The position numbers were made by a program, and so were the translations under genes. Below are positions 3,914-56,217 of a stretch of DNA of 64,000 bases, one piece after another. Origin of the DNA: a virus; the IMG/VR virus record IMGVR_UViG_3300019487_000002. One strand, written 5' to 3'. The notes beneath the pieces were generated by a model, which saw nothing but the letters and a program-made list of their open reading frames with translations, had not been told where the DNA came from and searched no databases. The first letter of the stretch is position 1. Each line of letters begins with the position of its first letter.

Positions 3914-4155
3914 TAGTATTTCTCCTTGTAAGAATCGACAACCTTGCGGAAATTGGAAAGCTTCCTAGAGGCTTCTTCTCTATACTCGTCTATTTTTACT
4001 CTTAGCTCCCCGACAGTTAATGAATCACTATCAGGACGATCTTTAATGAGATCATAAATCTTCGAAAAGATAATTGCGCCTTCATTCATCGCAATGTACT
4101 CATCGAACACTTCACCGATTACGCTTTTTGCGTCTGTGTTATCTACCTTTGGCAT
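3913..4155 (-). CDS. hypothetical protein
   Basis: 80-aa ORF with stop/start abutting its neighbours. Confidence 0.55.
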   Translation of the reverse strand: MPKVDNTDAKSVIGEVFDEYIAMNEGAIIFSKIYDLIKDRPDSDSLTVGELRVKIDEYREEASRKLSNFRKVVDSYKEKY

Positions 4156-4579
4156 ACAATCTATCCACGTCCTTCGGAGTTACATTAGAAGCCGCAATGT
4201 AGTATTGACCTTGGTTAGCTAGAGTTAAGAGATTTTCTGGCGCCAATATAAAGGTCTGCGTCACTCCGGGAATACTATTTATTTCCTCGCTCACCGCCGG
4301 CCAATGTTCTTCAATAAAAGCCGCAATGAGATATACTTCGAAAGCTCCTCCAATACCGTTATTGACCAACAAAACCAGCTTCTTGAGTGCGGGGTGTCCT
4401 TTTGGGAACATCATATTCATCAGTTGAATGAGTCCTCGGACAGCGACTTTATCACTATAAGGGAGTTCCCACACAACGCAGCGCGCCCCACCGAAGAATC
4501 GCCTATTCATGATCTTTTGGATTCGCCTGAATACAGCAGCGCACCCACGAGAAATTTTGAGGAGAGTAAAGTCAATCAC
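4139..4579 (-). CDS. hypothetical protein
   Basis: 146-aa ORF. GTG 4579 overlaps the primase stop (GTGATTGA); an internal ATG at 4510 is an alternative start. Confidence 0.5.
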   Translation of the reverse strand: MIDFTLLKISRGCAAVFRRIQKIMNRRFFGGARCVVWELPYSDKVAVRGLIQLMNMMFPKGHPALKKLVLLVNNGIGGAFEVYLIAAFIEEHWPAVSEEINSIPGVTQTFILAPENLLTLANQGQYYIAASNVTPKDVDRLYAKGR

Positions 4580-10413: not shown

Positions 10414-10838
10414 TCCAGGTATTCAATTTCAACATTTTCGTATTCGTGATCTTGACGGCGCTTTAGTACCTCAAAAGCCAGCTTTCCATCTCTGGTCTTT
10501 ACTGCCTTTTTAGCATCGTTGTAATCAGCTTTGAATTTCTCCCAATCAAGAATCTCCCGATTACGCTCTTTCCTCTTTCGGAGAGCGTCCAAACGGTACG
10601 ATTCAGGAAGGTTGGCGATTTGCTCGTCGGAGAGAGCTTCGACATGCACCCATTCTTCCATGGGGCCTGGGTCTTGAATGTATCCATACTCAGGATCAAT
10701 GCGCTCTTTGATAAGTTTCAGGGCAGAAGCGTACAATGCCTTGTCTGTACGAGCATCGAAAAAACGGGTAGCATGTTTTTCGTGAGCGACGAGAATGCGC
10801 TTATTCTTTGGCGACTCTTTCTCATATCTAATTCGCAT
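10410..10838 (-). CDS. hypothetical protein
   Basis: 142-aa ORF; its stop overlaps the SNF2 start (ATGA junction). Confidence 0.6.
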   Translation of the reverse strand: MRIRYEKESPKNKRILVAHEKHATRFFDARTDKALYASALKLIKERIDPEYGYIQDPGPMEEWVHVEALSDEQIANLPESYRLDALRKRKERNREILDWEKFKADYNDAKKAVKTRDGKLAFEVLKRRQDHEYENVEIEYLE

Positions 10839-11094
10839 TTCTACGACCTTTCTGCATTTTAGCGATATGCTCCGCTGAGAGAGTCTTTCCTGCTCTCGGT
10901 CGTTTCTTATTTGGAAGCTTTACCCAAGCTTTAGGGATTAACCAATCCCATGATCCTTCGGACAACTTCCGCGCTGGTCCTAAACGCTTCGTGAGTCTTT
11001 TTAAGACGGTAGGCGAGGAAGTTTGGACCCATGCAGAGTCTTCTTCCTCGTTCCAACCGATAATGGTCTCTCGTTCTAGTTTTGTGCGACTCAT
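10828..11094 (-). CDS. hypothetical protein
   Basis: 88-aa basic ORF in operon register. Confidence 0.55.
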   Translation of the reverse strand: MSRTKLERETIIGWNEEEDSAWVQTSSPTVLKRLTKRLGPARKLSEGSWDWLIPKAWVKLPNKKRPRAGKTLSAEHIAKMQKGRRNAN

Positions 11095-11558
11095 TACTTT
11101 GGAGTGTTCTGAACGAGATTAGCGAGATACTCAATGAGATATACTCGCGGAGCTACGAGAGTCTTCACAGCGACGAAGAGGTTGTTGAAGAACAGGTAAA
11201 AGCTGAAAACATGGCCTCCACCAATCACAACCCACGCAAACCCCGGCAGCGGTCCACCTTCATCCCAATCACGCCAGCAGCTAGTAACCGGCTTCTCATA
11301 CCACTTTTTCATCAGATAGCGCGAAGAAAGGAAAATAGCTACCGCCAGAACCATGTAGAGGATTGCTTCTGCAAAACCCCACTTGATGATTTCCTGAACC
11401 AGCAGTGGAACCTGTTCAGCAACGATATCCTTACCCTGCTTAGCCCAATCGAGCAATTCCTTTGCCCATTGCTTAATTACTAGCTCAACTACTACGGCAA
11501 CCTTCTGGGCGCCTTCAATAGTAGCGGTCGCAGCATCTTCGATCTTTTTTGTGTCCAT
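11094..11558 (-). CDS. hypothetical membrane protein
   Basis: 154 aa with several hydrophobic stretches (ILYMVLAVAIFL, FAWVVIGGGHVFSFYLFF). Confidence 0.6.
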   Translation of the reverse strand: MDTKKIEDAATATIEGAQKVAVVVELVIKQWAKELLDWAKQGKDIVAEQVPLLVQEIIKWGFAEAILYMVLAVAIFLSSRYLMKKWYEKPVTSCWRDWDEGGPLPGFAWVVIGGGHVFSFYLFFNNLFVAVKTLVAPRVYLIEYLANLVQNTPK

Positions 11559-11972
11559 TTAGTCCTCTATATCCAATAAATTTTCGATCAGTGCGTCTTT
11601 TTCTTCCTGCATGGTCTTTGCAGATATCACCTGCAATTTGCCCTTTAGCAAAGGATAGCTTTTAAACCCCACCCTAGGAACTCTGATTTCGATGACCGGG
11701 TAATCCGGGTTGACAGTGAACCATTGTTCCGTCGTGCGGTCTGAATCTTGTCCTTTTCCTCGGGCACCTACTTTCGTCTCCAATCTTATCACCTGACCTT
11801 CCTGTAGGTCAAGAGAAACAGCCCACCACGATTCACGACCGCGATGGGCTGGGTTAGAAACAAACTCTGCGCCTTCGGTATTGGCACTTAATTCTTTCTC
11901 GTCGAGAGTTATCTTGACGATATAGCCTTCCTTGAAGGACTTCTTGAAACCGTATAAAGCGAAAACTTCCAT
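11559..11972 (-). CDS. hypothetical protein
   Basis: 137-aa ORF with ATG at 11972. No SD and no promoter-like hexamers are visible upstream. Confidence 0.6.
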   Translation of the reverse strand: MEVFALYGFKKSFKEGYIVKITLDEKELSANTEGAEFVSNPAHRGRESWWAVSLDLQEGQVIRLETKVGARGKGQDSDRTTEQWFTVNPDYPVIEIRVPRVGFKSYPLLKGKLQVISAKTMQEEKDALIENLLDIED

Positions 11973-12212
11973 GAAGTAAGTTTCGTGACTACCGACGACG
12001 GCTGTTCAAGCAGAAGCTACTTGGTGTTTCGCCTTGCGGTTTTTCGATTCGGCTTTCCCCCGTGTGTCTTAACCACCGCCAAGCGGTACTCAAGCAAGGT
12101 GGGTCCAGCTACGCAGCTATTTACGCCATCAGAGATTAGGCCGATGGTATCTTGATGTACGTAGTGAACCCGGGGATACGGGCACACAAGGTACTGGAGT
12201 CACGAACTATAC
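11973..12212 (-). ncRNA. candidate structured RNA element, class unknown
   Basis: 240 nt without an ORF in an otherwise gap-free operon. The ends are complementary (11982-11990 with 12198-12206), and there are at least 6 internal hairpins (e.g. 12169-12182, 12126-12147, 12076-12086, 12107-12118, 11992-12001), plus a GCAA tetraloop closed by CC/GG at 12032-12039 (minus-strand sense). Confidence 0.4.
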
Positions 12213-12437
12213 TTAGTTCTGAGAGCCGCCAGCCGCAGCAATCGGAGCCTCGGCAGCATCAGCCTGCTCGAAAATGAACGTAGCGAGTAGACGGATGCGG
12301 TCACTCTGGCTCTTAGTCGCGGTCAGGCCGGTGACACCGAAGGTCTCCAAGTCCTTGAGGAGCGCATTCGAGCGCGCCCGAGCCCTGGGGTGCAACTGCA
12401 CGCCTTCGATATCGGTTGGTACTGATTTGTTAGCCAC
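12213..12437 (-). CDS. hypothetical small protein
   Basis: 74 aa. GTG start 7 nt after AAGGAGA; own consensus promoter upstream; G+C-rich relative to its neighbours. Confidence 0.6.
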   Translation of the reverse strand: MANKSVPTDIEGVQLHPRARARSNALLKDLETFGVTGLTATKSQSDRIRLLATFIFEQADAAEAPIAAAGGSQN

Positions 12438-12470
12438 TGTATTTCTCCTTTGTGAACGTTTGTACTTGCG

Positions 12471-12499
12471 ATTATAGATTAAAACTTACTTCGCGTCAA
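12471..12499 (-). promoter_or_regulatory. sigma70-type promoter
   Basis: Minus strand reads TTGACG-N17-TATAAT, about 27 nt upstream of the SD and start of the 74-aa gene. Confidence 0.6.
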
Positions 12500-12785
12500 C
12501 TGAAACTGGGACGCTCTGCGTAGTGCTCTGTACCTTGCGGGTACGAGAAACGAGAGGCGTAACTACGGTCACGACGCCATCACGGAGAGAAACCTTCACG
12601 TCCTCCACCTTTGCGTCGAGCGGAACAAGAATTTGGGTGGTCACAACGTCGCCACTGCGAACCGTGTGGACCGATTCGATGAAATCTGCCTCGGCCGCGA
12701 ATTCCCGCTCCGCATGAAGAATTTCGTCTTCAATTTCACGGAGAAGATCAACGAGCGGCGAGTTTACAAAAAGACTACGAGTCAT
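12486..12785 (-). CDS. hypothetical protein, weak Hsp20/alpha-crystallin-like pattern
   Basis: ATG 12785 is preceded by AAGGAGGA (the track ORF starts at 12818). ILVPLDAKVEDVKVSLRDGVVTVVTPL loosely resembles ACD beta-strands; this is not secure. Confidence 0.5.
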   Translation of the reverse strand: MTRSLFVNSPLVDLLREIEDEILHAEREFAAEADFIESVHTVRSGDVVTTQILVPLDAKVEDVKVSLRDGVVTVVTPLVSRTRKVQSTTQSVPVSVDAK

Positions 12786-12825
12786 GTTTACGATCCTCCT
12801 TTGGAATTTGTGATTCATATTGGGT

Positions 12826-12853
12826 ATCTTAACTCAGATTTGATTTTTGTCAA
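12826..12853 (-). promoter_or_regulatory. sigma70-type promoter
   Basis: Minus strand reads TTGACA-N16-TAAGAT, abutting the stop of the FEN-UDG gene. Confidence 0.55.
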
Positions 12854-14467
12854 CTATAACTGTTCGGCGAAGGTACGAATGAATTTCCAATCCTCAATAG
12901 ACTTCACTACGTCGCTATGCCCATTTGCGCCTTGCTGTAGACGCATGAGATACGATGGATGGAAAACGGGAATAAAAGTCACTCCCGGCCAATCATTGTG
13001 GTGATGAGGAATTCCCCGTGCTGAAGAAATTTTCTCGCCTTCGGGGAAAATAGCTTTGAAAGCCTTATCGCCGAGCAAAATTACCAGCTTAGGATTGACT
13101 AAACGGATATGCGCTCTGAGGCGAGGATTACACGCCGCGATTTCCTCTGAATCTGGAGGACGAATTTCGCCCGCTTCATTCGGAAAACACATAACGACAT
13201 TGGCGACGTGAATACTAGAACGCGGGATTCTTGCACACGCCAATAAAACTTTATCGAGGTACTTTCCAGCTTTTCCAATAAAAGGATCACCGTAAAAATC
13301 CTCGCTTGGCCCAGGCCCTTCCCCTAGAGCCATTATATTGGCGCGTTGAGGGCCAGAAAACTTCACAATCTTATTGCGGACTTGGTGTAGCTTGCAGCGT
13401 GTGCAATCACCCCAAATTTCGAATAGTTCGTCAAGTGTCTGTGCTGAGGCAAGCCTATTTTCGAGAGAATTGTCCACCAAATGCGTGCGAAGCTCGTTAC
13501 TGACTTTCTTGAGTTCGTAGGCATCTACGAATTGCTGTACTTCGATCCAGTCGATTGCAGGCGGGGTTTCCCATTGCTGCTTAAAGATTACCCGTTGATC
13601 TTCGTCTAACTGGTCGGGGTGTGACAATACATAGGACAATTCGTATGCCAGCTTGATTTGTTCTTCGTACTCAGGAATACGGCTCATGACAGCGGTTTTT
13701 GGTGATTTCGTCGCCTCTTTAAGCACGTCTTGTACCGTGCCACAATCACGAACCAGCTTAAGGGCTGTTTTTTCGCCGACACCGGGGACACCGGGAATAT
13801 CGTCGTTGGTGTCTCCCATCAACGCCTTAACATCAACCCACTGGCTCGGTTGAATCCCATATTTAGTCACGAAGTCTTGTAACGTGAAATGCTTTTTCTT
13901 AATTGGGTCATATTGCGATACTTTATCAGAAAGTAGCTGGTACAAATCCTGGTCAGAAGACACGACTACCACGTTTGCTGTTTCGCTTAAAGCGTCAGCA
14001 GCAATGCCAATCAAATCGTCACCCTCTACTTCGTGAATAACTAGTTGAGTCACTCCCAGATAGGGAAGAATGCTCTGAATAGCATCCATTTGCGGGAGCA
14101 TTTCTTCTTGGAATACGCGATGGTCTTCGTTTGTGCGACTCTTGTATCGACTCTCTTTATATTGAGAGGGGGTTTCACCAAGAATCTTCGCAGCCGTCGA
14201 TTCTGGATCGCGGCCAGCAAGTCGCTCTAGGCGCTCACGGTAATTCTTAAGAATACGCCGACGGTAGCGGGATTTATGGTCCCAGGCTACATACACTTTT
14301 TCTGGCTCAAACTGTTTTAGGATATGACAAAAGGATGAGAGAAAACCGTGAATAAGTCCCGAAGGAGTCCCATCTTTTGTTTTGAGCGTTTGGCCGCTTG
14401 TTGTGTGCCAAACTCTGTGGATCAGGTGATTTCCGTCGAAAATTACGTTGGTTTTATCGGCGGGCAT
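12854..14467 (-). CDS. 5'-3' exonuclease (FEN) fused to family-4 uracil-DNA glycosylase
   Basis: N-terminal FEN/PIN domain with H3TH motif GVPGVGEKTALKL. C-terminal UDG4 motifs CTRCKL, GEGPGPSEDFYGDPFIGKAGKYL and FHPSYLMR. The start at MPADKTNVIFDGNHL (14467) is preferred over track position 14536. Confidence 0.8.
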   Translation of the reverse strand: MPADKTNVIFDGNHLIHRVWHTTSGQTLKTKDGTPSGLIHGFLSSFCHILKQFEPEKVYVAWDHKSRYRRRILKNYRERLERLAGRDPESTAAKILGETPSQYKESRYKSRTNEDHRVFQEEMLPQMDAIQSILPYLGVTQLVIHEVEGDDLIGIAADALSETANVVVVSSDQDLYQLLSDKVSQYDPIKKKHFTLQDFVTKYGIQPSQWVDVKALMGDTNDDIPGVPGVGEKTALKLVRDCGTVQDVLKEATKSPKTAVMSRIPEYEEQIKLAYELSYVLSHPDQLDEDQRVIFKQQWETPPAIDWIEVQQFVDAYELKKVSNELRTHLVDNSLENRLASAQTLDELFEIWGDCTRCKLHQVRNKIVKFSGPQRANIMALGEGPGPSEDFYGDPFIGKAGKYLDKVLLACARIPRSSIHVANVVMCFPNEAGEIRPPDSEEIAACNPRLRAHIRLVNPKLVILLGDKAFKAIFPEGEKISSARGIPHHHNDWPGVTFIPVFHPSYLMRLQQGANGHSDVVKSIEDWKFIRTFAEQL

Positions 14468-14660
14468 TGCGGCCTTTCTTGCGATTCTTTCGGCACTTAT
14501 CAGTGCAATACTTGCGTACCGTTTGTCCTTTTTCACATTCGGCAGTTATCATAGGAATAATGATTCCACTGTTACACGTCTCACAAATACCAACAACGTC
14601 AACAAGAGGCGACCCTCCTCTGACTGAAACTGGAACCGTTATAAGCTGGTCTTGATTCAT
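14454..14660 (-). CDS. hypothetical Cys-rich protein
   Basis: 68 aa with CETC...CTDKCRKNRKK and a basic tail. Confidence 0.5.
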   Translation of the reverse strand: MNQDQLITVPVSVRGGSPLVDVVGICETCNSGIIIPMITAECEKGQTVRKYCTDKCRKNRKKGRNARR

Positions 14661-14661
14661 A

Positions 14662-14958
14662 TTACCTCTTTGGTAAAGCTGTAATTTCGAGAGCGTCTAA
14701 AATCAATTTAACATGGCGTCCGGTTGCACCCATGTAGCCTGAATAATACTTCGGGACGTTTATATCCCAGCTTTTGATTAGTAGCCAGATCGCCTCGAAA
14801 CGTGGATCGGCCTGTTCTTCCTCAGAAGGCGAAGGCATCTTGTGACGAGCGATAATCTCGTCAAGGGGAGACATTCGGTCAGCAGGAGGACTAGGAATCT
14901 CTGTTAATTTTTTAGACACCGCGAGAAACATCATACCCAAGGCTTTCAATATAGTCAA
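14662..14958 (-). CDS. hypothetical protein
   Basis: 98-aa ORF in operon register. Confidence 0.55.
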   Translation of the reverse strand: MTILKALGMMFLAVSKKLTEIPSPPADRMSPLDEIIARHKMPSPSEEEQADPRFEAIWLLIKSWDINVPKYYSGYMGATGRHVKLILDALEITALPKR

Positions 14959-15298
14959 TGATTTCTTTGGTGAAAGCCGTATGCTGTTCCCCGTGAAGCC
15001 AGAACTTCAAGTGAGCAAGTTCGTGCGCGAGCGTATTTAAAATGGTGCGGGTTTTAAGAGGACGGTTCGGACGGCCGTATTGGTGAATACGGATTTTGAT
15101 TATTTTCTCATTGCAGTTTTCTTCTTTGAATATTTTGGAATTGTAGCAACGGTCGCAGGCGGTGGCTTCTCCAAATAAGCCGTATTGACGCCTGGACGTG
15201 GAAGGCAGAATTTGACCGTAAGAGAGGTCGTATTTTCTACATACTTTATCTGAAATTTCGATAATATCCCGCCATAGCAGGATGGGTGTAGTAGCCAT
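14912..15298 (-). CDS. SprT-like zinc metalloprotease
   Basis: HExxH plus a downstream His: NTLAHELAHLKFWLHGEQH; 128 aa. Confidence 0.6.
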   Translation of the reverse strand: MATTPILLWRDIIEISDKVCRKYDLSYGQILPSTSRRQYGLFGEATACDRCYNSKIFKEENCNEKIIKIRIHQYGRPNRPLKTRTILNTLAHELAHLKFWLHGEQHTAFTKEIIDYIESLGYDVSRGV

Positions 15299-15342
15299 AC
15301 AGAAGTCTCCATTTTAGGAGAAGCTTCTCCTGTAAGCAACAA

Positions 15343-15726
15343 CTACTTTTTACCGTTCCAAGTTTGCATCTCTACGAAACCGTGTTCATCGGGCTGTCTA
15401 TCGCAGAGGAAAGTAATGGGCATTCCGTCCTGTTCATGGACTACCGTTTGATAATTCTTTGATGCCTTTTCGCGCACCTTTTTGTCAATAAAGGCTAGGG
15501 CCTTTTCGTCATTATCAAATGCGTATTCCTGGCGCTGTTTTGCAAATCGAATAAGATCAGAAGCGACCTTATTATGTCCATAATCGATGCGACCCCAGCT
15601 TACCCGTACTTTACCCGCTGGAACGTTCTCTACATCGTGAGGGTTCTGCCCCTCATATTCTGCCGCCCACATTTTGCGGCGGTTGTCGGTCGGGTCTTCA
15701 CAAATCATTAGGACTTCGATTTTCAT
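15343..15726 (-). CDS. WGR-domain protein
   Basis: Motif KVRVSWGRIDYG. ATG 15726 is preferred over the TTG at 15774. Confidence 0.55.
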   Translation of the reverse strand: MKIEVLMICEDPTDNRRKMWAAEYEGQNPHDVENVPAGKVRVSWGRIDYGHNKVASDLIRFAKQRQEYAFDNDEKALAFIDKKVREKASKNYQTVVHEQDGMPITFLCDRQPDEHGFVEMQTWNGKK

Positions 15727-15776
15727 TTTCTCACACAAAGACGCTGAACGCCAAACCAGCGCCGAAACCTTCAAGT

Positions 15777-16010
15777 CTAGGATTCCTGATGATCCACCCC
15801 GTTAGGACTAGAATCACTCCGAGAATGAACGGAGGGTTCATGCTTAGCTCCTCTCACGTGAAGTCGAATGAATTCATCCACTAGCTTATTCGCAGTCTCA
15901 ACAACTGGCGAGGGTTCTGCAACCGAAGGCGTGGCACCGATGCGGCAATGCACGCACGGTCTTTCCTCACCATCCCGATGGGTCTTTGACGGTCTTCCTC
16001 GACGTTCCAT
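15777..16010 (-). CDS. hypothetical protein
   Basis: 77 aa; ATG overlaps the upstream stop (TAATG). The region is G+C-rich, so coding status is less certain. Confidence 0.4.
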   Translation of the reverse strand: MERRGRPSKTHRDGEERPCVHCRIGATPSVAEPSPVVETANKLVDEFIRLHVRGAKHEPSVHSRSDSSPNGVDHQES

Positions 16011-16357
16011 TAGAACCTCTTTCTGTCTTGTAGGTAATCAGGTAGCTCAAGCACGACGCATCGCTTTCCGGTCTTGCGGTCTTTGACCGTGCGGACAAAT
16101 TCAAGTTTACTGATACAATTCCCGCCAGCGGTGAAGAATTGCCGGAAATCCGCGTGGAACGTCGGCATGACTTCAAGAGCCCGATGGGGAATGCGCTCAC
16201 CGTGCTCTACCGCGACGCTACGAGCCTGTTGCTCAATATAGGCCGCGTCTCTTTCGGACATGGGCGGGTTGGCGACTTTGAATGCGGTGTAGTGTGGTGC
16301 TTCCGCAAGCTCATGAACCCGGTCGTTGAGTACGAAAATGACGGTGTTAAATCCCAT
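16010..16357 (-). CDS. hypothetical protein
   Basis: ATG 16357 is preceded by GAGGA (track start 16408). Confidence 0.55.
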   Translation of the reverse strand: MGFNTVIFVLNDRVHELAEAPHYTAFKVANPPMSERDAAYIEQQARSVAVEHGERIPHRALEVMPTFHADFRQFFTAGGNCISKLEFVRTVKDRKTGKRCVVLELPDYLQDRKRF

Positions 16358-16550
16358 TCTTTTCCTCGAATAAGGCAAGTGTGTCGATATACGCCTGGGT
16401 ATCTTCACCCTCGATAAGAATTAAGGCTGCATTCGCCTTTCCCCTCTTATCAAAGAGGACGACTTTAGCACTCGCAGCTTCGCTCTCCCGCAAGATTGCG
16501 AGGAGAGCTTCTGCCGCCGCGCCAATTTTTTCCTTCTTGAAGACTTCCAT
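16347..16550 (-). CDS. hypothetical protein
   Basis: 67-aa ORF abutting the upstream gene. Confidence 0.5.
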   Translation of the reverse strand: MEVFKKEKIGAAAEALLAILRESEAASAKVVLFDKRGKANAALILIEGEDTQAYIDTLALFEEKNGI

Positions 16551-17068
16551 TAGTCCTTGAGAACCACCGGGAGCACGTCGCTCGCCATGAAGGCGCCAAT
16601 CTGGCCCTTGTACTCGCCAGCCACGCGAACGCTCACCTGTAGCGGGGCCTCACCCGTCTCGTCGCGCTTGATAAGCGCACTGAGGGTCTCTGCATCAACT
16701 ACCTTGGCGAGTGCCTCCTTGTTCACCTGCGAGATAAGCTCGACCAGATCACCCGCGTTGAGCTTGCCGTCAGCAAACAACTCAGCAACCTTCTGAGCAG
16801 CCGCCTTGTTGTCGAGGCGCTCGGGCTGCGAGAGAATCACCGTGGCAATGCCTTCGACCTTGGGATTGCTCCCCTTCTCGCCGACGTTGATCGTGATGGG
16901 GCATTCGTCAGCCGTCAGGTAATCCTCAACAGCCTTGCGAGCCTCTGTGTACTTCGCATCGAAGAAGTCAGCCGCAACCGACAGAGTGGCCGCCCGCTCG
17001 GTAAGCTGGACAAACTCACGGAAACCCGGCTTCTCAACTGCCTTCTTGCCCTTCTTTACGATAGCCAT
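16550..17068 (-). CDS. hypothetical protein
   Basis: ATG 17068 lies 11 nt after AGGAGG; about 172 aa, A/E/K-rich. Confidence 0.6.
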   Translation of the reverse strand: MAIVKKGKKAVEKPGFREFVQLTERAATLSVAADFFDAKYTEARKAVEDYLTADECPITINVGEKGSNPKVEGIATVILSQPERLDNKAAAQKVAELFADGKLNAGDLVELISQVNKEALAKVVDAETLSALIKRDETGEAPLQVSVRVAGEYKGQIGAFMASDVLPVVLKD

Positions 17069-17136: not shown

Positions 17137-18063
17137 TTACTTGTCCCCGCCCTTGAGGCTAGCCTTCTTCACATCGTCTGTAGTCTTTTCCCAAGTACAA
17201 GTCGCCGGCTCAACATCATCGCGGAAGCGATGCCACACCGGATGCCGAAACCGACCGTCCTTTGTGACTTCCTGAGCGAAAACATCAATCACGCGCCCCA
17301 TGTAGGCGTCTCGATTCTTCCAGATATCGTGCCGCTCGGCATCGGTCATACCAGAACACTTGCCGACTTCCACTAGTTTGCCGTCCTTGTAGACCGAAAA
17401 GAGGACCGCACCGAGAGTCGTGGCATACTTGCCGTTGCCCTGTTGATAGCCAGAAATGACTACCGAAAAATCAGAACGGCGCTTGCACTTCACCCAGCCC
17501 ATGCCATAAGAGGCGTCGAGATTCTTGATAACCATGCCTTCCTGACCGGCATCTACCAGCGCACGGAAATACGTAGCCTTATCTTTCGCCTGCACAACCG
17601 GCCAGATTGCCTCATGATTGTTCATGTCTCGGCACGTCTGCGCCAGTAGCTCCCGACGTTCACGGAGCGGCTTGCTTCGCACGTCTACCCCACGCAGAAA
17701 GAGAATATCGAAAACATGATACTTCACCTTGCCGACTTTCTCTTGCGTGGCAATCGCCTTTGCCGGAAGGCTATTCATGATGCCGGTCGTATCGCCAAGC
17801 TGCTCCTGGCCCGGAAGCATGATTTCGCCATCGAGCATCGTGCCCTCGAAGCCGGGATATGGCTTTGCAATATGTGGAACGTTTGCAGCCTTGTCGATAG
17901 CAGGGAACCGCTGGCGGCTATACAGATGGACGCTACCATCGTGGTCGAGATACAACATATACCTCGCGCCATCAAGCTTTGGCTCCGCGATATAGCGGTC
18001 GTTGTCGAGCAGAGAATCGTCGTAGGCGCCGGTACAGCGCGACGGTGCAATTCTAGGCAGCAT
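17137..18063 (-). CDS. ATP-dependent DNA ligase
   Basis: Adenylation motif EPKLDGARYML (KxDG); about 308 aa; ATG 18063 overlaps the upstream stop (TGATG). Confidence 0.85.
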   Translation of the reverse strand: MLPRIAPSRCTGAYDDSLLDNDRYIAEPKLDGARYMLYLDHDGSVHLYSRQRFPAIDKAANVPHIAKPYPGFEGTMLDGEIMLPGQEQLGDTTGIMNSLPAKAIATQEKVGKVKYHVFDILFLRGVDVRSKPLRERRELLAQTCRDMNNHEAIWPVVQAKDKATYFRALVDAGQEGMVIKNLDASYGMGWVKCKRRSDFSVVISGYQQGNGKYATTLGAVLFSVYKDGKLVEVGKCSGMTDAERHDIWKNRDAYMGRVIDVFAQEVTKDGRFRHPVWHRFRDDVEPATCTWEKTTDDVKKASLKGGDK

Positions 18064-18353
18064 CAAAACAATTCCTCAAGAGGAAGGTACCGATACGTAG
18101 ACGCGAGACTACCGCCAGTGATAAAGATGGTGATGCCTCCCTCGTCTACCTCGAAACGCTCGACCGTCTCTTCCTTCGTGAGCGTCCCGCCGCGCTTGAG
18201 CATGGTGGCTAGACGAGTAAAAGACACTGTGAAGCATGTTCCTCCGGTTGAACGGGTCTTTGTATAGAAGGACCCCGCCGGGTAGGTGACTCCATACTTC
18301 GTGCAACGCTTGTTAGGCTTGAAAGCCACTGGCTTAGAACGACGCTTCTTCAT
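18063..18353 (-). CDS. hypothetical basic protein, apparently leaderless
   Basis: ATG 18353 lies 7 nt downstream of TATATT. The track start at 18389 is a TTG inside the -35 hexamer. Confidence 0.55.
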   Translation of the reverse strand: MKKRRSKPVAFKPNKRCTKYGVTYPAGSFYTKTRSTGGTCFTVSFTRLATMLKRGGTLTKEETVERFEVDEGGITIFITGGSLASTYRYLPLEELF

Positions 18354-23402: not shown

Positions 23403-24214
23403 AGGATTCCCTTGGCGATAGGATGAAGGGATATGAACGGGCGCACCTTTCGCGTGCGTTGCCGGGTATCCCTGTTTGCGCCCGACTAGATGGCCGAGCT
23501 TTCCACAGTTGGTGCAGCGATTTGCACCGCCCGTGGGATAACAGCTTCCATCAGATTATGGACCGAGCTACGGCTTTTCTTGTAGAACAGACTAATGCCA
23601 AGATCGGCTATACACAGAGCGATGAAATTACGCTGATTTATTACGCCGATTCTCCTGAATCGCAAATATTCTTCGACGGAAAGATTCAGAAGATGACAAG
23701 CGTTCTAGCGTCCATGTGTACGGCAAAGTTCAACGAGGCTGCACGCCTTTTTCCTGATACTACACATAAGCCTTTAGCATTTTTTGATTGCCGTGTGTGG
23801 CAAGTCCCCAATCTCCGGGAAGCCGTCAGTGTACTAATTTGGAGAGAGGCAGACGCTCGACGCAATTCGATTATGATGGCGGCGCAAAGCTTCTATAGCC
23901 ATAAACAGCTTCTTGGGAAAAGTTCAAAAAAACAGCAGGAAATGCTACACGAAAAAGGCCTCAACTGGAGCAAGGAATACCCTGACCGATTCAAGCGCGG
24001 CGCATATTTTGCTCGCCGCATGGGTTATCGCGTAATGACCATGAGCGAGTTCTCACACATTCCTGAGGCACACCGCCCTGCGGCTCCACCTTTGGTTGAG
24101 CGCCGCGTCGTGAAGAACTTGCAGCTTGGTCCGATGCGACGTATCGTCAATAGTATTGACGTTGTTTTCAACGAAGCGGAGCCGGTGTATGGAACCTGTA
24201 ACGAGCACCCATAG
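23390..24214 (+). CDS. Thg1-like protein (tRNA-His guanylyltransferase family, 3'-5' nucleotidyltransferase)
   Basis: GDRMKGYE, ARLDGRAFH, YTQSDEITL, FDCRVW and WREADARRNS line up with Thg1/TLP conserved blocks. The start is TTG 23390 or GTG 23399, upstream of the first ATG. Confidence 0.8.
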   Translation: MPRVKDSLGDRMKGYERAHLSRALPGIPVCARLDGRAFHSWCSDLHRPWDNSFHQIMDRATAFLVEQTNAKIGYTQSDEITLIYYADSPESQIFFDGKIQKMTSVLASMCTAKFNEAARLFPDTTHKPLAFFDCRVWQVPNLREAVSVLIWREADARRNSIMMAAQSFYSHKQLLGKSSKKQQEMLHEKGLNWSKEYPDRFKRGAYFARRMGYRVMTMSEFSHIPEAHRPAAPPLVERRVVKNLQLGPMRRIVNSIDVVFNEAEPVYGTCNEHP

Positions 24215-25268
24215 AGCCGATATTGTAGAAGTTGTGCTTGGGCCGCACCCCAATGCCGATAGCCTTTCTATCGTCAAAATCTACGACGGTGGTTTTCAGG
24301 TTATTGTCAAAACCGAAGATTGGGTAGAGCGATATCGAGGCGTTTACATTCAGCCAGATAGTATTGTCCCCGACAAGCCTGAATTTGCCTTTCTAGAAAA
24401 GCGGCGAATCAAAGCCAAGAAATTGCGAGGCGAATGGTCCGCTGGCCTTCTTGTTCCTGTTCCACCGGAGTTTGAGCATTTGGAAACGGGCACTGATTTG
24501 GCTCCGCTCATGGGGATCGAACATTATGAGCCACCGCCGTCCATGCCCGGCCTAACGGGTGGTCTGACCGATTCGAGTCCAAAGTTCATCCGCAAGCAGC
24601 GAAAAGATGGAAAGTATGATGCGGAATTTATCGGCTTTGAATACCCGAAATACGATGTAGAGTCTTTTCGGAAATATGGAAAGCGGGTATACGAACCGGG
24701 TGAAATCATTTGGATAACAGAAAAGATACACGGCTCTAACGGTCGTTGGCTTTTCGACGGTAAACGGTTTTATTGTGGGAGCCGCACCGAATGGAAGAAA
24801 GAAGACCCACAGAACCTTTGGTGGCGTGCCCTCAATTATTACCCCACTCTTCAAGAATTCTTGAAGGCAAATCCTGGCGTGGCGGTGTATGGAGAAGTAT
24901 ACGGACAGGTACAGGATTTGAAATACGGAGTCCCAAAAGGGGAAATTCGAGTCGCAGTGTTTGATATCTTGCGGGAAGGAAAATGGATAAACGCGCTGGA
25001 GGCATGGAAGATAGGAAAGGATAATGGCTTGCCTTGGGTTCCCCTTCTTATGGGTGCAACCTATGACAGTCTCCCCGAGCCTGACTTGCTGCCTCGATTC
25101 GATTTTGACATGCTGATTGAAATGGCAGAAGGCCCGAGCCAGATTCCCGACGCGAACCATATTCGAGAAGGTATTGTCGTGAAGCCATGGGAAGAACGTT
25201 GGCACCCTAAAATGCAAGGACGTGTCTGCACCAAAATTGTAGGCAATGGGTATTGGGCAAGAAAGTAA
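24189..25268 (+). CDS. ATP-dependent RNA ligase with N-terminal OB-fold tRNA-binding-like domain
   Basis: Motif I ITEKIHGSN (KxHGxN, as in Rnl2/Rnl5-type ligases). The N-terminal HPNADSLSIVKI...IQPDSIVP resembles the Trbp111/EMAPII-type OB domain. ATG 24189. Confidence 0.75.
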   Translation: MEPVTSTHRADIVEVVLGPHPNADSLSIVKIYDGGFQVIVKTEDWVERYRGVYIQPDSIVPDKPEFAFLEKRRIKAKKLRGEWSAGLLVPVPPEFEHLETGTDLAPLMGIEHYEPPPSMPGLTGGLTDSSPKFIRKQRKDGKYDAEFIGFEYPKYDVESFRKYGKRVYEPGEIIWITEKIHGSNGRWLFDGKRFYCGSRTEWKKEDPQNLWWRALNYYPTLQEFLKANPGVAVYGEVYGQVQDLKYGVPKGEIRVAVFDILREGKWINALEAWKIGKDNGLPWVPLLMGATYDSLPEPDLLPRFDFDMLIEMAEGPSQIPDANHIREGIVVKPWEERWHPKMQGRVCTKIVGNGYWARK

Positions 25269-28472: not shown

Positions 28473-29081
28473 ATGGAAGTTATCGTCCAAGGACAATCCA
28501 CCAAGAACTTTCTGATTATCGTAAAAGATGAACATGGTGAGGACCAATTCAATATTTCTGATCTTCTATTGATTGATGAAAACGATCTAGAGCGTGAGGT
28601 TAAGCATTGCGCGGCGGATGAACATTATTGGCACCAGCTTGCCATCGACGCCGATCATCAGCGTGAAGAATTCGAGAAAATTGACTATGCTCAGTATATT
28701 GCTCATACAGAGAAGTACGCGAAGTATTACTTGAAAGGTTCTGGCGATAAGAATTTCACTGGTGCTGCTCGTGAGAGTGCTGCTATGCTGATTTTCTCTC
28801 GTAAAGCGACGGAGGATGATAAAAAGGTATACGCAGAAACAGCGTACAAAGGTTATACTTCGGAAACATCGAGCATCGGTGTAAAATCGAAGAGTTTGGG
28901 AGAATTTACCGACGATATGTTTTTATATGATCCGACATATGAAGACGCCCAGACGCACTTGCTTGCATTGAAGCACCGTGCTGAGCGGCTCAAGGCGGTT
29001 TCATCAGCATTCAATACAAAAAGCTGGAGCATCAAGACTTTAGCCGCAGATCGTCGGGCGGCAATGCAGAGCAATATTTAA
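28473..29081 (+). CDS. hypothetical protein
   Basis: ATG 28473 follows AGGAG; 202 aa. Confidence 0.6.
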   Translation: MEVIVQGQSTKNFLIIVKDEHGEDQFNISDLLLIDENDLEREVKHCAADEHYWHQLAIDADHQREEFEKIDYAQYIAHTEKYAKYYLKGSGDKNFTGAARESAAMLIFSRKATEDDKKVYAETAYKGYTSETSSIGVKSKSLGEFTDDMFLYDPTYEDAQTHLLALKHRAERLKAVSSAFNTKSWSIKTLAADRRAAMQSNI

Positions 29082-29951
29082 TGGCGAAGGAAACTCAATA
29101 CAGTCATATTGACGATTCCGTTAACTTCATTGATAAGTTTGGCCCAGGGTCGTATTTTGAATCTCGCTATGTACGTCGGCATCCAGAATATGTCGCGTGT
29201 TACCTTTCAACGCAGACCGGCTGCGAACACAACTGCCGCATGTGTCATTTAACTATCACCGGGCAAAACAAAAACGTCAAAGACGCTTCAATAGTTGATT
29301 TATTCCTTCAGGCTGAAGATGTTTTAACTCATTATGCCAAAACGTCAGAGAAGCGGGCTTCAGTAGTCCATTTACAACTTCATGGCAAGGGGAGAACCGC
29401 TCGCAAGCACCGCGATCTTACTCAAAAATGAAGAATTGTTCCTGGGATTGGCACGCTTAGCTAAGCACCATGATCTCAGGCCACGCTTTTTGATTTCTAG
29501 CATATTGCCACAATCCTTCACTCGGGAATTTGAAGAAGTATTTCCTATTATTCACCCAGAAATATATTATTCTTTATACAGTCTGAACGAGGATTTCCGA
29601 AAGCGATGGGTTCCACAAGCGATGCCGGTTATTGAGGCGCTTGGGAAACTATATAGGTGGCAGAGGTATTCCAAAAAAATTATTCGTATCCATCACGCAC
29701 TCATTGCAGGCGAGAACGATAGTGACGAAGATGCAAAGGCAGTAGGTCATGCAATTACCACGTGTAGATTGCGCGCCGACTTCACACTTGTTCGTTATAA
29801 TCCACCGAATGAAAGCAGCCGAGAATCGGAATGGTACGAACGGTATGCTCAAACGCTCAAGAAATGGTCTCCCAACGAAACACGCATAAAAGTGCTCAAT
29901 CGTGTGGGATATGACGTGAAAGCTTCATGCGGAATGTTCGTAGGCCCATAG
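29081..29951 (+). CDS. RlmN/Cfr-family radical-SAM methyltransferase-like gene, interrupted by a +1 frame change near 29371-29373
   Basis: CYLSTQTGCEHNCRMC (the upstream Cys plus CxxxCxxC) is in ORF 29081..29431. FMARGEPL, TLVRYNPP and the C-terminal GYDVKASCGMF are in ORF 29382..29951. Skipping one T of the TTT run gives a continuous VVHYNFMARGEPL. Confidence 0.7.
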
Positions 29952-30208
29952 GCAACTGCTACGTGACTTCAGAGGCGTTGTTTCATCTTCTTGGTGGAAA
30001 ACGCGCTGGATGGAAGCCCATGCGTGTCAAAATGACGAAAGGCACTCATTGGTTTTTACAGCACGCGACCGGCATCATTGTAGACCCCACGAAGAAGCAA
30101 TTTGGGATTAATCGCGTTCCATACGGTAAAGCAGTGGGTTGTGGATTTTTGACAAAGAAGCCTAGTCATAGAGCGAAAAAATTAATGAAAACTTTGGTGT
30201 GGCAATGA
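29927..30208 (+). CDS. hypothetical protein
   Basis: 93-aa ORF. Confidence 0.55.
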   Translation: MRNVRRPIGNCYVTSEALFHLLGGKRAGWKPMRVKMTKGTHWFLQHATGIIVDPTKKQFGINRVPYGKAVGCGFLTKKPSHRAKKLMKTLVWQ

Positions 30209-33161: not shown

Positions 33162-34213
33162 CGTTTGATGACGTTTTATTGGTCCCAAACTATAATGACT
33201 TCCGTTCACGTTCAGCCGTAACGACCATTGCTTCGCTCGACCGGCTTACTTTTAATATTCCAATTATAGCTGCAAACATGGACACCATTTGTGGTGCCGA
33301 AATGGCCCGCAAAATGTGGACATTGGGCGGATTAGGAATAATCCATCGGTTCATGCCAGTGGATCAGAACGTTGAAGAATACAAGAAAGCCGCCGAGCCT
33401 ATTTATTATGGACATTCTGCAAGAGGATATCTTGTTCCTTCTCATATGGATACACCTATCATCGGCGTGACTGTCGGTGTCAACGAAGGCTTAGAACGGG
33501 CAGAAGCGTTATATACCGCCGGCGCGTGGTTATTCTGTGTAGACGTAGCCCATGGGCACTCTCGCCTAACAGGTAAGATGGTCAAGGCTTTACGGGAGCG
33601 ATTCAATCAGGAAATCTTTATTATCGCTGGGAACGTCGCTACTTACGCAGGTGCCGATTACTTAGCTGGATGCGGTGCCGACGCTATCAAAGTTGGCATC
33701 GGCCCTGGTTCAGTTTGTACCACGCGCATGAAAACGGGATTCGGTGTTCCACAGATAACAGCCATTATGGAATGCAGTCGGTCACGTCGTCCTATTATTG
33801 CTGATGGTGGGATGCGTTCTCCCGGCGATGTAGTCAAAGCTCTTGCAGCCGGCGCCAGTATGGTTATGCTCGGTGGTATGTTGGCTGGAACATTAGAAAC
33901 CCCCGGCGAGGTTATATACCCAGAAGGGGAAGGTCCGGTTGGGCCAATAAAGGTCTTCCGAGGCATGGCTTCAGAAGAAGCCCACAGCGATTATTATGGG
34001 GATTTGCCTGATTGGAAAACAGCAGAAGGCGTGAGCATTACAGTACCGGCCCGTGGTAGCGTTGAAGAAGTCGTCAAGGACGTTGTGGGCGGATTACGTT
34101 CGGGCTTGACGTATTGCGGTGCATCTAATGTAACTGAACTACAGAGCAGAGTCGAATTTATAGAAGTTACGCGAGCGTCTTATGTCGAAGGTACACCCCA
34201 TGGCAAGCAATAA
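33143..34213 (+). CDS. GMP reductase-like (IMPDH/GMPR family, no CBS insert)
   Basis: [12 protein letters not shown], catalytic loop [14 protein letters not shown], and [22 protein letters not shown] 33143 follows GAGGGA. Confidence 0.8.
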
Positions 34214-34403
34214 AACATACCCCGTAATTAAATGGCTTAATAAAGAAAAGACAATCTTTAGAACCAGCCTTCAGTGCCCACGCTGTAACTCTCTTGAGCG
34301 CATTAGTCATACAACGGCCTATACCGGCTCCGACTGTCGGAAGTGTGAAGCCAATAGAGCAAATAAACAAGTTTGGTTTAAAAGAGGGGAATTACATACT
34401 TGA
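34200..34403 (+). CDS. hypothetical zinc-ribbon protein
   Basis: 67 aa with CPRC...CRKC. Confidence 0.45.
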   Translation: MASNKTYPVIKWLNKEKTIFRTSLQCPRCNSLERISHTTAYTGSDCRKCEANRANKQVWFKRGELHT

Positions 34404-34442
34404 CTCCCGAAAACGGTGAAGGCCGCAAGGAGGGACTGTCGC

Positions 34443-34766
34443 ATGAGTAAACTACTGGACCGCCCATTGACCTCTCTGACCGTCATGCCGCTGCATCCGA
34501 AGGGCGCACGGGACTACTGGGGCCATGACCTGCGCACCCGGCCAGGCGACCAGCTCCCCGCTCTCGATGAATACGTGGTGCAGTGGGACTGGCGCTGTCG
34601 CGGCTGCATCGAGAACGCCGAGACCTACGTCGCCTTCGGTCAGGACGCGCCGCTATGGTGGCAGCCAGCACCCGATGAGGAGCGGCTCTCGACGTTGTTG
34701 TCTGCGATGGTCGCGCGGAGCAGACGCTTCTGGGCGGATACGGTCGAAGAGGACGCGGGGGAGTGA
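34443..34766 (+). CDS. hypothetical protein in a G+C-rich island
   Basis: ATG 34443 follows AAGGAGGGA. All three overlapping frames are open here because of composition. Confidence 0.45.
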   Translation: MSKLLDRPLTSLTVMPLHPKGARDYWGHDLRTRPGDQLPALDEYVVQWDWRCRGCIENAETYVAFGQDAPLWWQPAPDEERLSTLLSAMVARSRRFWADTVEEDAGE

Positions 34767-34886
34767 AGTACGTAATTCCCTAAAAGAGGAGAAGAAAGAA
34801 AAAGATTTCGACCGGGGCGTTTTTCCGAGGCATTAAAACAAGGATGGATTTCTGAATCCGTTGCAGTCGGGCCAAGTCGAAAGAAA

Positions 34887-35381
34887 ATGACCCAATCTCT
34901 TAAGGAGATCGCGCTCCGTTGTTTTACAACACCTATAAAAGCAGGAAAAGGTCAGCGTCAAGAAGTTCGGGTCAGTAGACCTACCGGATTGCCACGGCAG
35001 GTAAAGTCAAGGATAGAATTTCTCGAAGCTATCCAAAAATTTAACGAAAAATGCTCTGCATGTCAAAATCCATTCGGCGTTTGTTACGCCATATTTATGG
35101 AAAATAGGTTTGAGCAAAACATACCCGAACATAGCCATTTTGGATTAACAAAGGCTCAGGGAAAGAGAATGAATGTTGCTACAGATGGTTGTGACTACCC
35201 AATGTGCGTGGCTTGTCAATTAATCCTAGGCAACAATAAAAGTGATGAATGGGATTCACTAGCTGATTTTGGAAATTACTCTGCGAATTTGCAGAAAGAA
35301 AGAGGGTACAAGGTACTTCGGAGGCGGGATGAAGACGGTAAAGTCTTATTCGAACCCATAAATGCGCTTAATAGTTTTTAG
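34887..35381 (+). CDS. hypothetical Cys-rich protein
   Basis: 164-aa ORF. Confidence 0.55.
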   Translation: MTQSLKEIALRCFTTPIKAGKGQRQEVRVSRPTGLPRQVKSRIEFLEAIQKFNEKCSACQNPFGVCYAIFMENRFEQNIPEHSHFGLTKAQGKRMNVATDGCDYPMCVACQLILGNNKSDEWDSLADFGNYSANLQKERGYKVLRRRDEDGKVLFEPINALNSF

Positions 35382-46074: not shown

Positions 46075-46845
46075 GTGCCAAAAATAAGTTCTCACTGCTC
46101 TATTTGTAAATTACCTACCGCCGACCGTGATGGTTTTCACACTGACAAATGGGTCAATCATTTTACCCACGCTCAATTGGCGACCAAGTATTTTCCACAG
46201 AGGTCTATAGCTACTGTTCTCAAGTCTTGTACTGTCCACTTCGAGAAACATTTTCCCTTTGACGAATTCGTCAATGAAATCGTTGACGAAAAGACAAAAG
46301 CAGATAGCACTAATCTTCCCACTATATCAGCCACAGAAAGAGCAATATTTACTGAAGCGTATCAATCGCGCTTAGATTCAGTTCGAACCATCGAGTCCAT
46401 GATGCGGACGCTGATGGATAGAGCAAACGTCATCCAGGAAGAATGGAATAAGGTTCACATTGCCACGAAATGTGAGGAATGCGGTCGAGATGATACTGGA
46501 CCCAACCTTGTGAAAATTCTCGCAGTATTCCGCGAGCTTCGTGAACAGGTAGACCAATGGACTAAGATGCGGAATCCCATGGGGGCCGTTAATAAGATTG
46601 CCGAGAAGGCATTCGTAACGTTCGTGGAAGAAATGACTGACGTGTACGTCTTAGTCATGTCTGACAAGTCTCGACTGATTCGAGATGCGGTAAATGACTT
46701 TCTTGCTGAGAAAATAAATCAAGGCATGTTCGCCAAGCGTATAACGGAAGCATTAGACGATTTTGGCGGAGATAGGATTTCGTCGTCGGCCCAAGAGAAG
46801 TACCAGAAGATATTTTCAACGGTGATGAAGGAGTTGAAGTTGTAA
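46075..46845 (+). CDS. hypothetical protein
   Basis: 256-aa ORF with a GTG start and no SD. Confidence 0.55.
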   Translation: MPKISSHCSICKLPTADRDGFHTDKWVNHFTHAQLATKYFPQRSIATVLKSCTVHFEKHFPFDEFVNEIVDEKTKADSTNLPTISATERAIFTEAYQSRLDSVRTIESMMRTLMDRANVIQEEWNKVHIATKCEECGRDDTGPNLVKILAVFRELREQVDQWTKMRNPMGAVNKIAEKAFVTFVEEMTDVYVLVMSDKSRLIRDAVNDFLAEKINQGMFAKRITEALDDFGGDRISSSAQEKYQKIFSTVMKELKL

Positions 46846-48047
46846 TGGCGAAGAAGACGATAGCGGTTTACGCAGACACCCCCACGGTCTGCACCGGATT
46901 TGGAAACGTTACCAAAAGTATTTTCACTAATCTTGGTGATGAATACGAGATTAAAATTGTAGGTATTAACTACAATGGGTATCCTCATAATTACCCTAAT
47001 CTGAAGATTTACCCAGCGTGTAATCCCTTGTATGTAGGCGGCGGCGTAGATTACTACGGTAGAGAACACCTAAAGCGTTGGGTAGAAACTGAACACTTTG
47101 ATCTATTCTTCATGCTCAACGACGGATGGCTTCTTCGTGATTTTGCACCAGACGTGGTAGAACGCATCAAGAAGAAAGGGAAAAGTATTCCTACTGTCTG
47201 TTATTTCCCTATCGATTGCGATGAGACCGAAGGCGCGTGGTATGATTGGATGATGGACGTGGAAGTCCCTGTGACGTACACAGAATTCGGCCTGAACATC
47301 GTGAAGAAAATATTTCCTGCTCTGGGACTAAGAACAAAAGTAATCCCTCACGGCGCGGACGTTGACACGTTCAAGCCAATCCCACGCGGTTCCGATCAGA
47401 AAGTTGCTCATTATCGCAATCTCGTAGGGGGAGAGTTCGCGTTCATCAACGTCAACAAGAATCAGGTTCGTAAGAACGTACCCGGGTCTATTGCGGCCAT
47501 GCGAGAGTACCAACGCATGATTGATAATGGCGATACTATGGTTCTTCACATGAACGAAGAAGAAGGTGTGGGATGCCACGTTCGAATAATTGCGAACAGC
47601 CTCGAATTTCAGAAGAAGAACACAATCCGTATTTCCCCTGCTCGATTGGATGAGGAACATCTTAACTGCATGTATAACGCTTGCCAAGTAGCTATGACTA
47701 CTTCCGCAGGTGAAGGATGGGGATTGAGTATTTCCGAAGCTATTTGTGCGGGGATACCAGTTATTGCTCCTCGGCACACGTCTTTCCCTGAGGTAGTCCG
47801 TGAGTTTGGATATCTCTATGATCCTGGGATGCGTCATTGTGCATTACCTCTTAGTACGGATAGAAGCAATTGGCGATATTACGCCGATCCAAAAGTCGTC
47901 GCTGAAGCGATGCTCGACGTGCGTAAGAACTATGTCCGCTACAAGGAAATGGCCCTTAAAGGTCGGAAGTGGTATGAAGAAAACCGGACATGGAAACATC
48001 ATATCGTCCCTGAATGGAGAGAGTTGTTTGCTCAACTCATGTCATAA
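46845..48047 (+). CDS. GT-B glycosyltransferase (family 1/4-like)
   Basis: SAGEGWGLSISEAICAGIPVIAP (E-x7-E motif). Confidence 0.8.
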   Translation: MAKKTIAVYADTPTVCTGFGNVTKSIFTNLGDEYEIKIVGINYNGYPHNYPNLKIYPACNPLYVGGGVDYYGREHLKRWVETEHFDLFFMLNDGWLLRDFAPDVVERIKKKGKSIPTVCYFPIDCDETEGAWYDWMMDVEVPVTYTEFGLNIVKKIFPALGLRTKVIPHGADVDTFKPIPRGSDQKVAHYRNLVGGEFAFINVNKNQVRKNVPGSIAAMREYQRMIDNGDTMVLHMNEEEGVGCHVRIIANSLEFQKKNTIRISPARLDEEHLNCMYNACQVAMTTSAGEGWGLSISEAICAGIPVIAPRHTSFPEVVREFGYLYDPGMRHCALPLSTDRSNWRYYADPKVVAEAMLDVRKNYVRYKEMALKGRKWYEENRTWKHHIVPEWRELFAQLMS

Positions 48048-56165: not shown

Positions 56166-56181
56166 CTAAAGCACTCGCGTA

Positions 56182-56210
56182 TTGACTTAATGACCAATAA
56201 CCCTTATAAT
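56182..56210 (+). promoter_or_regulatory. sigma70-type promoter with the GCGTATTGACT motif
   Basis: GCGTA-TTGACT-N17-TATAAT, then 7 nt to ATG 56218. Confidence 0.65.
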
Positions 56211-56217
56211 ACACGAC

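Follow-up and report, generated by a model that had tools for sequence, protein, structure and literature searches.

The window examined here, a 64,000-nt stretch of viral DNA (IMG/VR record IMGVR_UViG_3300019487_000002), carries at 29081-29951 two overlapping open reading frames (ORFs) that together look like one radical S-adenosylmethionine (SAM) enzyme of the RlmN/Cfr kind. The locus raises the question whether the break between both frames belongs to the phage or to its sequencing, whether the gene is still in use, and which enzyme the joined frames would encode. On balance, and with somewhat better than even confidence, we read it as a phage copy of a short radical-SAM family that is a sister of RlmN and Cfr, hit by a real insertion and turned into a very recent pseudogene.

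An inserted base and its consequences for the gene

ORF1 spans 29081-29431 (+) and encodes 116 aa. ORF2 runs from an ATG at 29382 to the stop at 29951 (+) and encodes 189 aa; its frame is open from 29367, lies +1 relative to ORF1, and the overlap of both ORFs amounts to 50 nt. The two ORFs are present with the motifs that the first-pass annotation had quoted, and the 1-nt frame change sits where it had been placed, being the single indel in an 870-nt DNA alignment of the window gene with its two nearest relatives, L001 and L002 (∼80% nucleotide identity). The site reads CATTTACAAC in the window, CACTT-CAAC in L001 and CATTA-CAAC in L002. Removing one base from CATTTAC (29369-29375, + strand), where the single-nucleotide insertion shifts the frame by +1, yields a protein of 289 aa. 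This agrees with the length reconstructed before and equals that of the intact orthologues P0001 and P0002, to which the repaired protein aligns end to end with 82% identity and 100% coverage. It also matches the PHROG 27142 profile (5.9e-82; residues 6-287 on profile positions 9-299 of 300) and gives a single unbroken tblastn match in 27 phage genomes. The comparison with orthologues of related phages, proposed earlier as a check, was carried out in these genomes as well as in L001 and L002 and found the homologues intact in a single frame: an uninterrupted ORF of ∼290 codons is normal for PHROG 27142 (27 of 27 phage homologues, P0001 and P0002) and is lacking in the window copy.

The part upstream of the break encodes residues 1-97 (29081-29371, +), in frame with the ATG at 29081, which overlaps the stop codon of the upstream gene (TAATG). 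It aligns with residues 1-103/104 of L001/L002 at 78-81% aa identity and holds the CX3CX2C motif (C48, C52, C55; 29222-29245, +) of the radical-SAM [4Fe-4S] cluster. ORF1 continues with an out-of-frame tail (29372-29431, +), LQLHGKGRTARKHRDLTQK followed by a stop, for which no homologue has a counterpart. Residues 98-289 are encoded in the +1 frame (29373-29951, +) with 80-81% aa identity to residues 98-289 of L001/L002. This part holds FMARGEPL, VRYNPP and the C-terminal Cys loop, including the codon of C283 (29928-29930, +), which corresponds to the Cys that carries the methyl group in RlmN (C355) and Cfr (C338).

If the true genome had an intact 289-aa gene, the extra T (or A) would be an indel error of sequencing or assembly beside the TTT run. 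The extra base does adjoin a short homopolymer, and the repaired ORF is perfect. However, the exact 116-aa product, tail included, and the exact 189-aa product are both called as genes on three contigs that came from different pipelines: a 34.9-kb Logan contig (SRR7811987), which over 6.5 kb shares 100% identity with the window; a 2.9-kb contig with a k141-style name from ENA (ERZ27251176 k141_580041, L184); and a third contig of the 50-200 kb class. Between the ENA contig and the window there is one single-nucleotide polymorphism (SNP; A31263G), and CATTTAC is the same in both, so that the insertion is also found on a second haplotype. The contigs with the insertion stem from at least two different sequence datasets, different assembly pipelines and two haplotypes. 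SNP A31263G occurs as well in L003 (JGI metagenome 3300019458), a contig that begins 77 nt 3' of the junction. A run of three Ts is too short for typical homopolymer sequencing errors. Finally, the assembly is not prone to indels, since the 20 other genes syntenic with L001/L002 (∼13 kb) each align as a single segment and none is frameshifted. Because of the three contigs, the second haplotype and the unbroken neighbouring genes, a sequencing error, which the first-pass annotation had listed among its three explanations, is very improbable. We conclude that the insertion is a genuine heritable mutation in all sampled genomes of this phage lineage, judged from assembled contigs.

No intact allele closer than 82% identity was found in a collection of 5.8 billion proteins, in viral contigs or in metagenome contigs. 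Junction patterns that allow either allele had no match in the viral and metagenome contig collections, which therefore contain neither the window allele nor the intact one; protein-guided scans of the same viral and metagenome contigs found a closest relative of 54% identity, and in 50,697 phage records megablast found no match to the 2.2-kb region. L003 and L184 share, besides SNP A31263G, an end at window position 31655, and this suggests strain-level variation that breaks assemblies just past this point.

With the insertion taken as real, we have to ask whether the gene is dead or recoded. A +1 shift that keeps the conserved H-(Y/F)-N-F-M-A-R-G-E-P-L segment must fall within CAU-UUA-C, and as read from the sequence, re-pairing in the +1 frame is impossible there for tRNA-His on CAU as well as for tRNA-Leu on UUA. 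The TTA codon is not rare in this genome (11.1 per 1000 codons). No Shine-Dalgarno-like element is present upstream of the shift site or before ATG 29382, in contrast to the neighbouring gene at 30465 with its AGGAGG ribosome-binding site, and the 85 nt 3' of the shift site are no more folded than shuffled sequence (z = +0.68), arguing against a stimulatory RNA structure. The resemblance to prfB/RF2-type programmed +1 frameshifting, with its CUU UGA C and upstream Shine-Dalgarno sequence, lies in the +1 shift needed to join the ORFs; the window site lacks a slippery P-site codon, its A-site codon is neither a stop nor slow or rare, and a stimulator and conservation among orthologues are missing too; none of the features of programmed +1 frameshifting is present. 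A single frame encodes the protein in the nearest orthologues and in the 27 phage homologues.

The gene could nevertheless be functional, if ribosomes shift to +1 at CAU-UUA-C or if the ORF1 and ORF2 products together form an enzyme in two pieces. Every genome sampled from the lineage has the frameshift, neither half has acquired a stop codon or lost an invariant residue, and ORF2 starts with an in-frame ATG within the 50-nt overlap. This ATG has no ribosome-binding site, however, and a split at 29382 would remove YNF from the predicted core beta-strand 95-100 of the barrel, within which the break falls just 5' of the FMARGEPL SAM-binding motif, and would leave a junk tail of 19 residues. Moreover, the kept residues carry less weight than they seem to. 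The dN/dS value against orthologues is below 0.1, with dS saturated, and all 39 family-invariant residues are retained in the window copy (39/39), so the lesion is recent relative to the history of the lineage. A lineage-specific dN/dS is unable to date the insertion, as dS is saturated to the nearest relatives and the haplotypes are one SNP apart. Because this is one SNP in 2.9 kb, the retention of residues is silent on selection since the insertion. With neither slippery site nor rare codon, Shine-Dalgarno element or RNA structure, we consider translation by bypass or in two pieces unlikely, and recent pseudogenisation is the best reading of the three that the first-pass annotation had left side by side. 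The window gene is thus most likely a recent pseudogene, a call that we make with fair rather than high confidence. ORF1 would then give a 97-residue fragment with the cluster motif followed by the 19 junk residues, and ORF2 is left without a ribosome-binding site. That an accessory gene was recently lost here means that at least one phage lineage can do without the enzyme, which is a modest result.

Relationship to RlmN and Cfr

The assignment to the RlmN/Cfr family was right in so far as these are the closest known proteins, by profiles as well as by Foldseek, but the scores lie far below curated cut-offs. RlmN model TIGR00048 matches with 6e-17 and 61.6 bits against a cut-off of 290, and the Cfr models of NCBIfam match with E values of 3e-13 to 8e-12. 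The scores for NF000424 (Cfr; 49.7 bits, cut-off 530), TIGR04432 (Cfr; 47.7 bits, cut-off 550) and NF008396 (RlmN; 36.1 bits, cut-off 633) are likewise low; for all four models the curated equivalog cut-offs of 290-633 bits are missed by scores of 36-62 bits. Searched against the PDB, a profile of 81 aligned family members found Cfr (9p0p, 8.9e-21) and RlmN (6fz6, 3rf9, 4pl1, 5hr6; 8e-13 to 8e-11) and nothing else. The AlphaFold2 model (pLDDT 92.4, pTM 0.90) shows a predicted RlmN-type fold with partial TIM barrel, N-terminal beta extension and C-terminal Cys loop. Its ten best Foldseek matches are all RlmN (including 6fz6, 4pl1, 3rfa and 5hr7; TMq 0.70-0.77, E 1e-14 to 2e-12), followed by Cfr (TMq 0.58) and other radical-SAM folds (TMq up to 0.58).

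The conserved residues point in the same direction. C48, C52 and C55 are invariant in 81 of 81 members and align with C125/C129/C132 of RlmN and C112/C116/C119 of Cfr. C283, within DVKASCGMF, aligns with DIDAACGQ of the RlmN/Cfr A-A-C-G loop and is kept in 81/81 aligned members and in 221 of the 222 members that were collected by motif matching. The GEPL motif and the VRYNP strand are conserved in the family as well. With RlmN, the class-A radical-SAM methyl-synthase that forms m2A2503 in 23S rRNA and m2A37 in tRNA (E. coli; PDB 3RFA, 5HR7; TIGR00048/NF008396), the window protein has ∼18% identity, while fold, CX3CX2C, GEPL SAM motif, (I/V)xxNP strand and a C-terminal A-x-C-G loop with the methyl-carrier Cys are shared. 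Cfr, the m8A2503 methyl-synthase that confers PhLOPSA resistance (S. aureus; PDB 9P0P; NF000424/TIGR04432), is the best PDB sequence match and has the same motifs, its C338 corresponding to C283. The closest likeness is to the phage members of PHROG 27142 themselves: the model superposes with 201phi2-1 gp434 at TMq 0.92, and length and Tyr/Cys pattern are identical. In these phages the gene is one intact ORF, unlike the frameshifted window copy, whose identity to any sequenced phage does not exceed 45%. The class-A RNA methyl-synthases RlmN and Cfr have their nearest sister group in the PHROG 27142 family.

This family departs from both in two features that define them. The first-pass annotation had seen every hallmark of the family in the joined frames. 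This holds for the cluster motif, FMARGEPL, VRYNPP and the C-terminal Cys, but not for the upstream mechanistic Cys, which had been placed in aCYLSTQTGC. The Cys of that segment, C40 (TGT), and the following Y41 (TAC; both codons 29198-29203, +) stand before the cluster motif, and in three independent HMMER alignments, gapless to the cluster motif, it is Y41 and not C40 that pairs with the Cys of tlCVSSQVGC in RlmN (C118) and of sfCISSQCGC in Cfr (C105). C40 is thus one residue off, and it is not conserved either (44/81 aligned and 72/222 motif-matched members, V, A, I, L or T elsewhere), a pattern that appears to be that of a buried hydrophobic position. Tyr occupies position 41 in all 222 members, so the second mechanistic Cys of RlmN and Cfr, seven residues before the cluster motif, has no equivalent in this family. 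Canonical RlmN/Cfr-like sequences from the same scan (L093-L096; 24-26% identity) keep this Cys within SVCISSQVGC.

The other departure concerns the N-terminus. Approximately 80 N-terminal residues of RlmN, including the accessory RNA-binding domain, are absent; in the alignments, position 9 of the family profile falls on RlmN residue 88 and position 21 on Cfr residue 85. To call the protein N-terminally truncated, as had been done, is misleading, since ∼290 aa is the typical length of the whole family (range 275-315 aa; 436 clusters at 50% identity with E ≤ 1e-30). From these lengths the short N-terminus is native family architecture and no truncation in this phage. In addition, the family has FMARGEPL, its Arg invariant, where RlmN has MGMGEPL, and an H-L-T that hardly varies comes after the cluster motif.

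A true RlmN or Cfr orthologue would methylate A2503 of 23S rRNA and/or A37 of tRNA by the two-cysteine mechanism and could alter the drug sensitivity of the ribosome, as was proposed in the first-pass annotation. RlmN and Cfr are indeed the best matches in sequence and structure, and the family keeps the cluster motif, GEPL and the Cys equivalent to C355. Homologues also bear the name 'ribosomal RNA large subunit methyltransferase N' in several phage records. Yet the scores are 4-10 times below the curated cut-offs, the N-terminal domain is missing, and the residue replaced by Tyr in 222 of 222 members is one that RlmN needs to resolve its enzyme-RNA adduct: with C118A, the enzyme stays covalently trapped on the tRNA (PDB 5hr6 and 5hr7, by their titles). 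In Cfr, the equivalent C105 lies within 5 Å of A2503 in a published model (doi 10.1101/2025.09.18.677109). We therefore consider orthology improbable. Judged by its residues, the protein appears to be neither an RlmN nor a Cfr orthologue, as it lacks two defining features and falls below all curated score thresholds. With scores this far below the cut-offs (61.6 vs. 290, 49.7 vs. 530), an activity on A2503 or A37 or a role in resistance is not inferable by orthology, and claims of either are not justified. Because of the two missing features, the labels 'RlmN' and 'rRNA methyltransferase N' in databases and phage records are unsafe for this family, and equally unsafe is any inference of ribosome methylation or Cfr-like drug resistance from them.

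Possible chemistry, distribution and bacterial partners

In RlmN and Cfr the C-terminal cysteine is first methylated and then delivers a methylene radical to the adenine. The intact members of the family, which keep the SAM/[4Fe-4S] site and the C-terminal cysteine, would share the initial steps: their conserved residues suggest SAM-dependent methylation of Cys283 and its subsequent activation by a 5'-deoxyadenosyl radical. As there is no N-terminal RNA-binding domain and an invariant Tyr takes the place of the second Cys, target recognition and the step that releases the adduct must differ from RlmN and Cfr. Our best guess is that the intact family may methylate a carbon of a nucleic-acid base by radical chemistry, with tRNA or rRNA as the most plausible target. 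With the methyl-carrier Cys kept and the resolving Cys exchanged for an invariant Tyr, the family offers a test case for the release of covalent intermediates in class-A methyl-synthases.

Homologues are found in jumbo phages of Pseudomonas (201phi2-1, Phabio, Psa21 and D6) and Caulobacter (CcrColossus and CcrPW) and in Brevundimonas phages, on IMG/VR contigs of 180-430 kb and on Pseudomonas megaplasmids of ∼1 Mb; PHROG 27142 bears the label 'Fe-S-cluster redox domain-containing'. Another jumbo phage from the same metagenome as L003 (IMGVR_UViG_3300019458_000020, L016, 250.8 kb) carries an intact homologue with 45% identity to the window protein. In cellular genomes the family is rare: with one genome per species for 185,579 species, two exact family motifs matched 106 stretches, 91 of which encode a relative. 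Cellular homologues are scattered in Alphaproteobacteria and Actinobacteria, and many occur in Myxococcota and Planctomycetota, complete chromosomes of 7.8-9 Mb included.

No conserved neighbour emerged from the phage and metagenome loci, where the best cluster was present in 13 of 63. Of the 75 bacterial genome loci with enough upstream sequence, 31 have a divergently oriented AbiEii-like nucleotidyltransferase gene 30-300 nt upstream of the matched region, and all 31 belong to Myxococcota or Planctomycetota. The assignment is supported by Pfam PF08843 (71 bits) and by PADLOC (AbiEii, 5e-37); among the PADLOC models there is none for the radical-SAM protein. Next on the AbiEii strand come genes for a leucine-rich-repeat protein, in 29 loci, and for a sulfotransferase-like protein, in 22. 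The cassette can be seen in a Polyangiales chromosome (OZ245758; L097 4798-8897) and also in L104-L163 at ∼2700-6850, with the sulfotransferase-like, leucine-rich-repeat and AbiEii-like genes on one strand and the short radical-SAM gene divergent. The N-terminus of the leucine-rich-repeat protein is presumably TIGR02996-like, as recognised by eye.

Enzymes of the AbiEii/MenT type nucleotidylate the 3' ends of tRNAs. For this reason the pairing is a weak pointer to tRNA as shared target, and its occurrence in two bacterial phyla provides a concrete lead to the substrate. In L097, the stretch after the radical-SAM gene (8897-16897) holds another small radical-SAM gene (193 aa, Fer4_12) together with FtsH/MoxR genes of the 'fvmX' conflict system. 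The fvmX linkage (eLife paper PMC7159879) was rejected as a lead since it exists in one Polyangiales genome only, L115 being the same chromosome. A literature search for a phage RlmN-like family or for AbiEii with radical SAM returned nothing relevant. We regard two points as modestly novel, the Tyr that stands for the resolving Cys and the link with AbiEii, and the window locus itself as of low interest.

A bolder proposal, tentative and in our opinion rather doubtful, is that the family forms a third, mechanistically distinct class-A radical-SAM branch, with one Cys, an invariant Tyr and no RlmN-type RNA-binding domain, which might act on tRNA or some other nucleic acid, the modification being a weapon or counter-weapon in the conflict of phage and host. 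In bacteria it would be put to use next to an AbiEii/MenT-like nucleotidyltransferase, in jumbo phages and on megaplasmids without such a partner; the strongest form of the proposal would have the window copy still produced via an unconventional +1 bypass. For the reading favoured at the outset, a recent pseudogene of an RlmN/Cfr-sister family, several points have to be set on the other side of the balance. Contigs do not give the allele frequency per sample, and an intact minority allele could exist. Some assemblies may come from one environmental site or project, so that their independence, for which distinct run and assembly accessions and two haplotypes speak, is only partly established. 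The complete lack of secondary lesions would also fit a gene that is still expressed by an unrecognised bypass. The proposed chemistry and substrate are drawn from homology and gene neighbourhood only, and the missing C118-equivalent Cys could mean a different reaction altogether.

Surroundings of the gene in the window

The upstream gene (28473-29081, +; ∼202 aa), whose stop overlaps the radical-SAM start, is syntenic and 81% identical in L002 and has no Pfam or PHROG match. Downstream follows a small, weakly YunG-like gene (29927-30208, +; PHROG 12251, 1.1e-20; Pfam YunG 20.6 bits, below cut-off). In L001 and L002 its ATG overlaps the radical-SAM stop (ATGA), and the window has ATA at this place (29945-29965). 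Due to this exchange the downstream gene must start at ATG 29927 or GTG 29963, and the translational coupling of the relatives is altered. The radical-SAM gene lies within a block for replication and nucleotide metabolism that comprises PolA, RecA-like, GMP-reductase-like, SbcCD and dCMP deaminase genes. A 324-aa gene of L001 (5307-6281) has no counterpart in the window at 34182-35381, where three small ORFs without Pfam match are located.

The RNA-repair content noted in the first-pass annotation was found again, in the form of two RNA ligases and two tRNA genes. One ligase (24126-25268) has the Pfam RNA_ligase domain and a PHA02142 OB domain; the other (57136-58299), a T4 Rnl1-like enzyme, has its gene between tRNA-Lys(UUU) (56092-56166) and tRNA-Leu(CAA) (58662-58746). 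This cluster at 56092-58746 looks like a tRNA repair or replacement module, and the two RNA ligases and two tRNA genes are consistent with an RNA or tRNA target of the radical-SAM family. Other accessory genes encode a 'GT4-conflict' glycosyltransferase (46845-48047), a full-length DnaJ (59040-60020), ThyX (2842-3717) and an ATP-dependent DNA ligase (17137-18066). Together with ribonucleotide reductase, primase-helicase and SbcCD, this set fits a large, possibly jumbo, phage genome.

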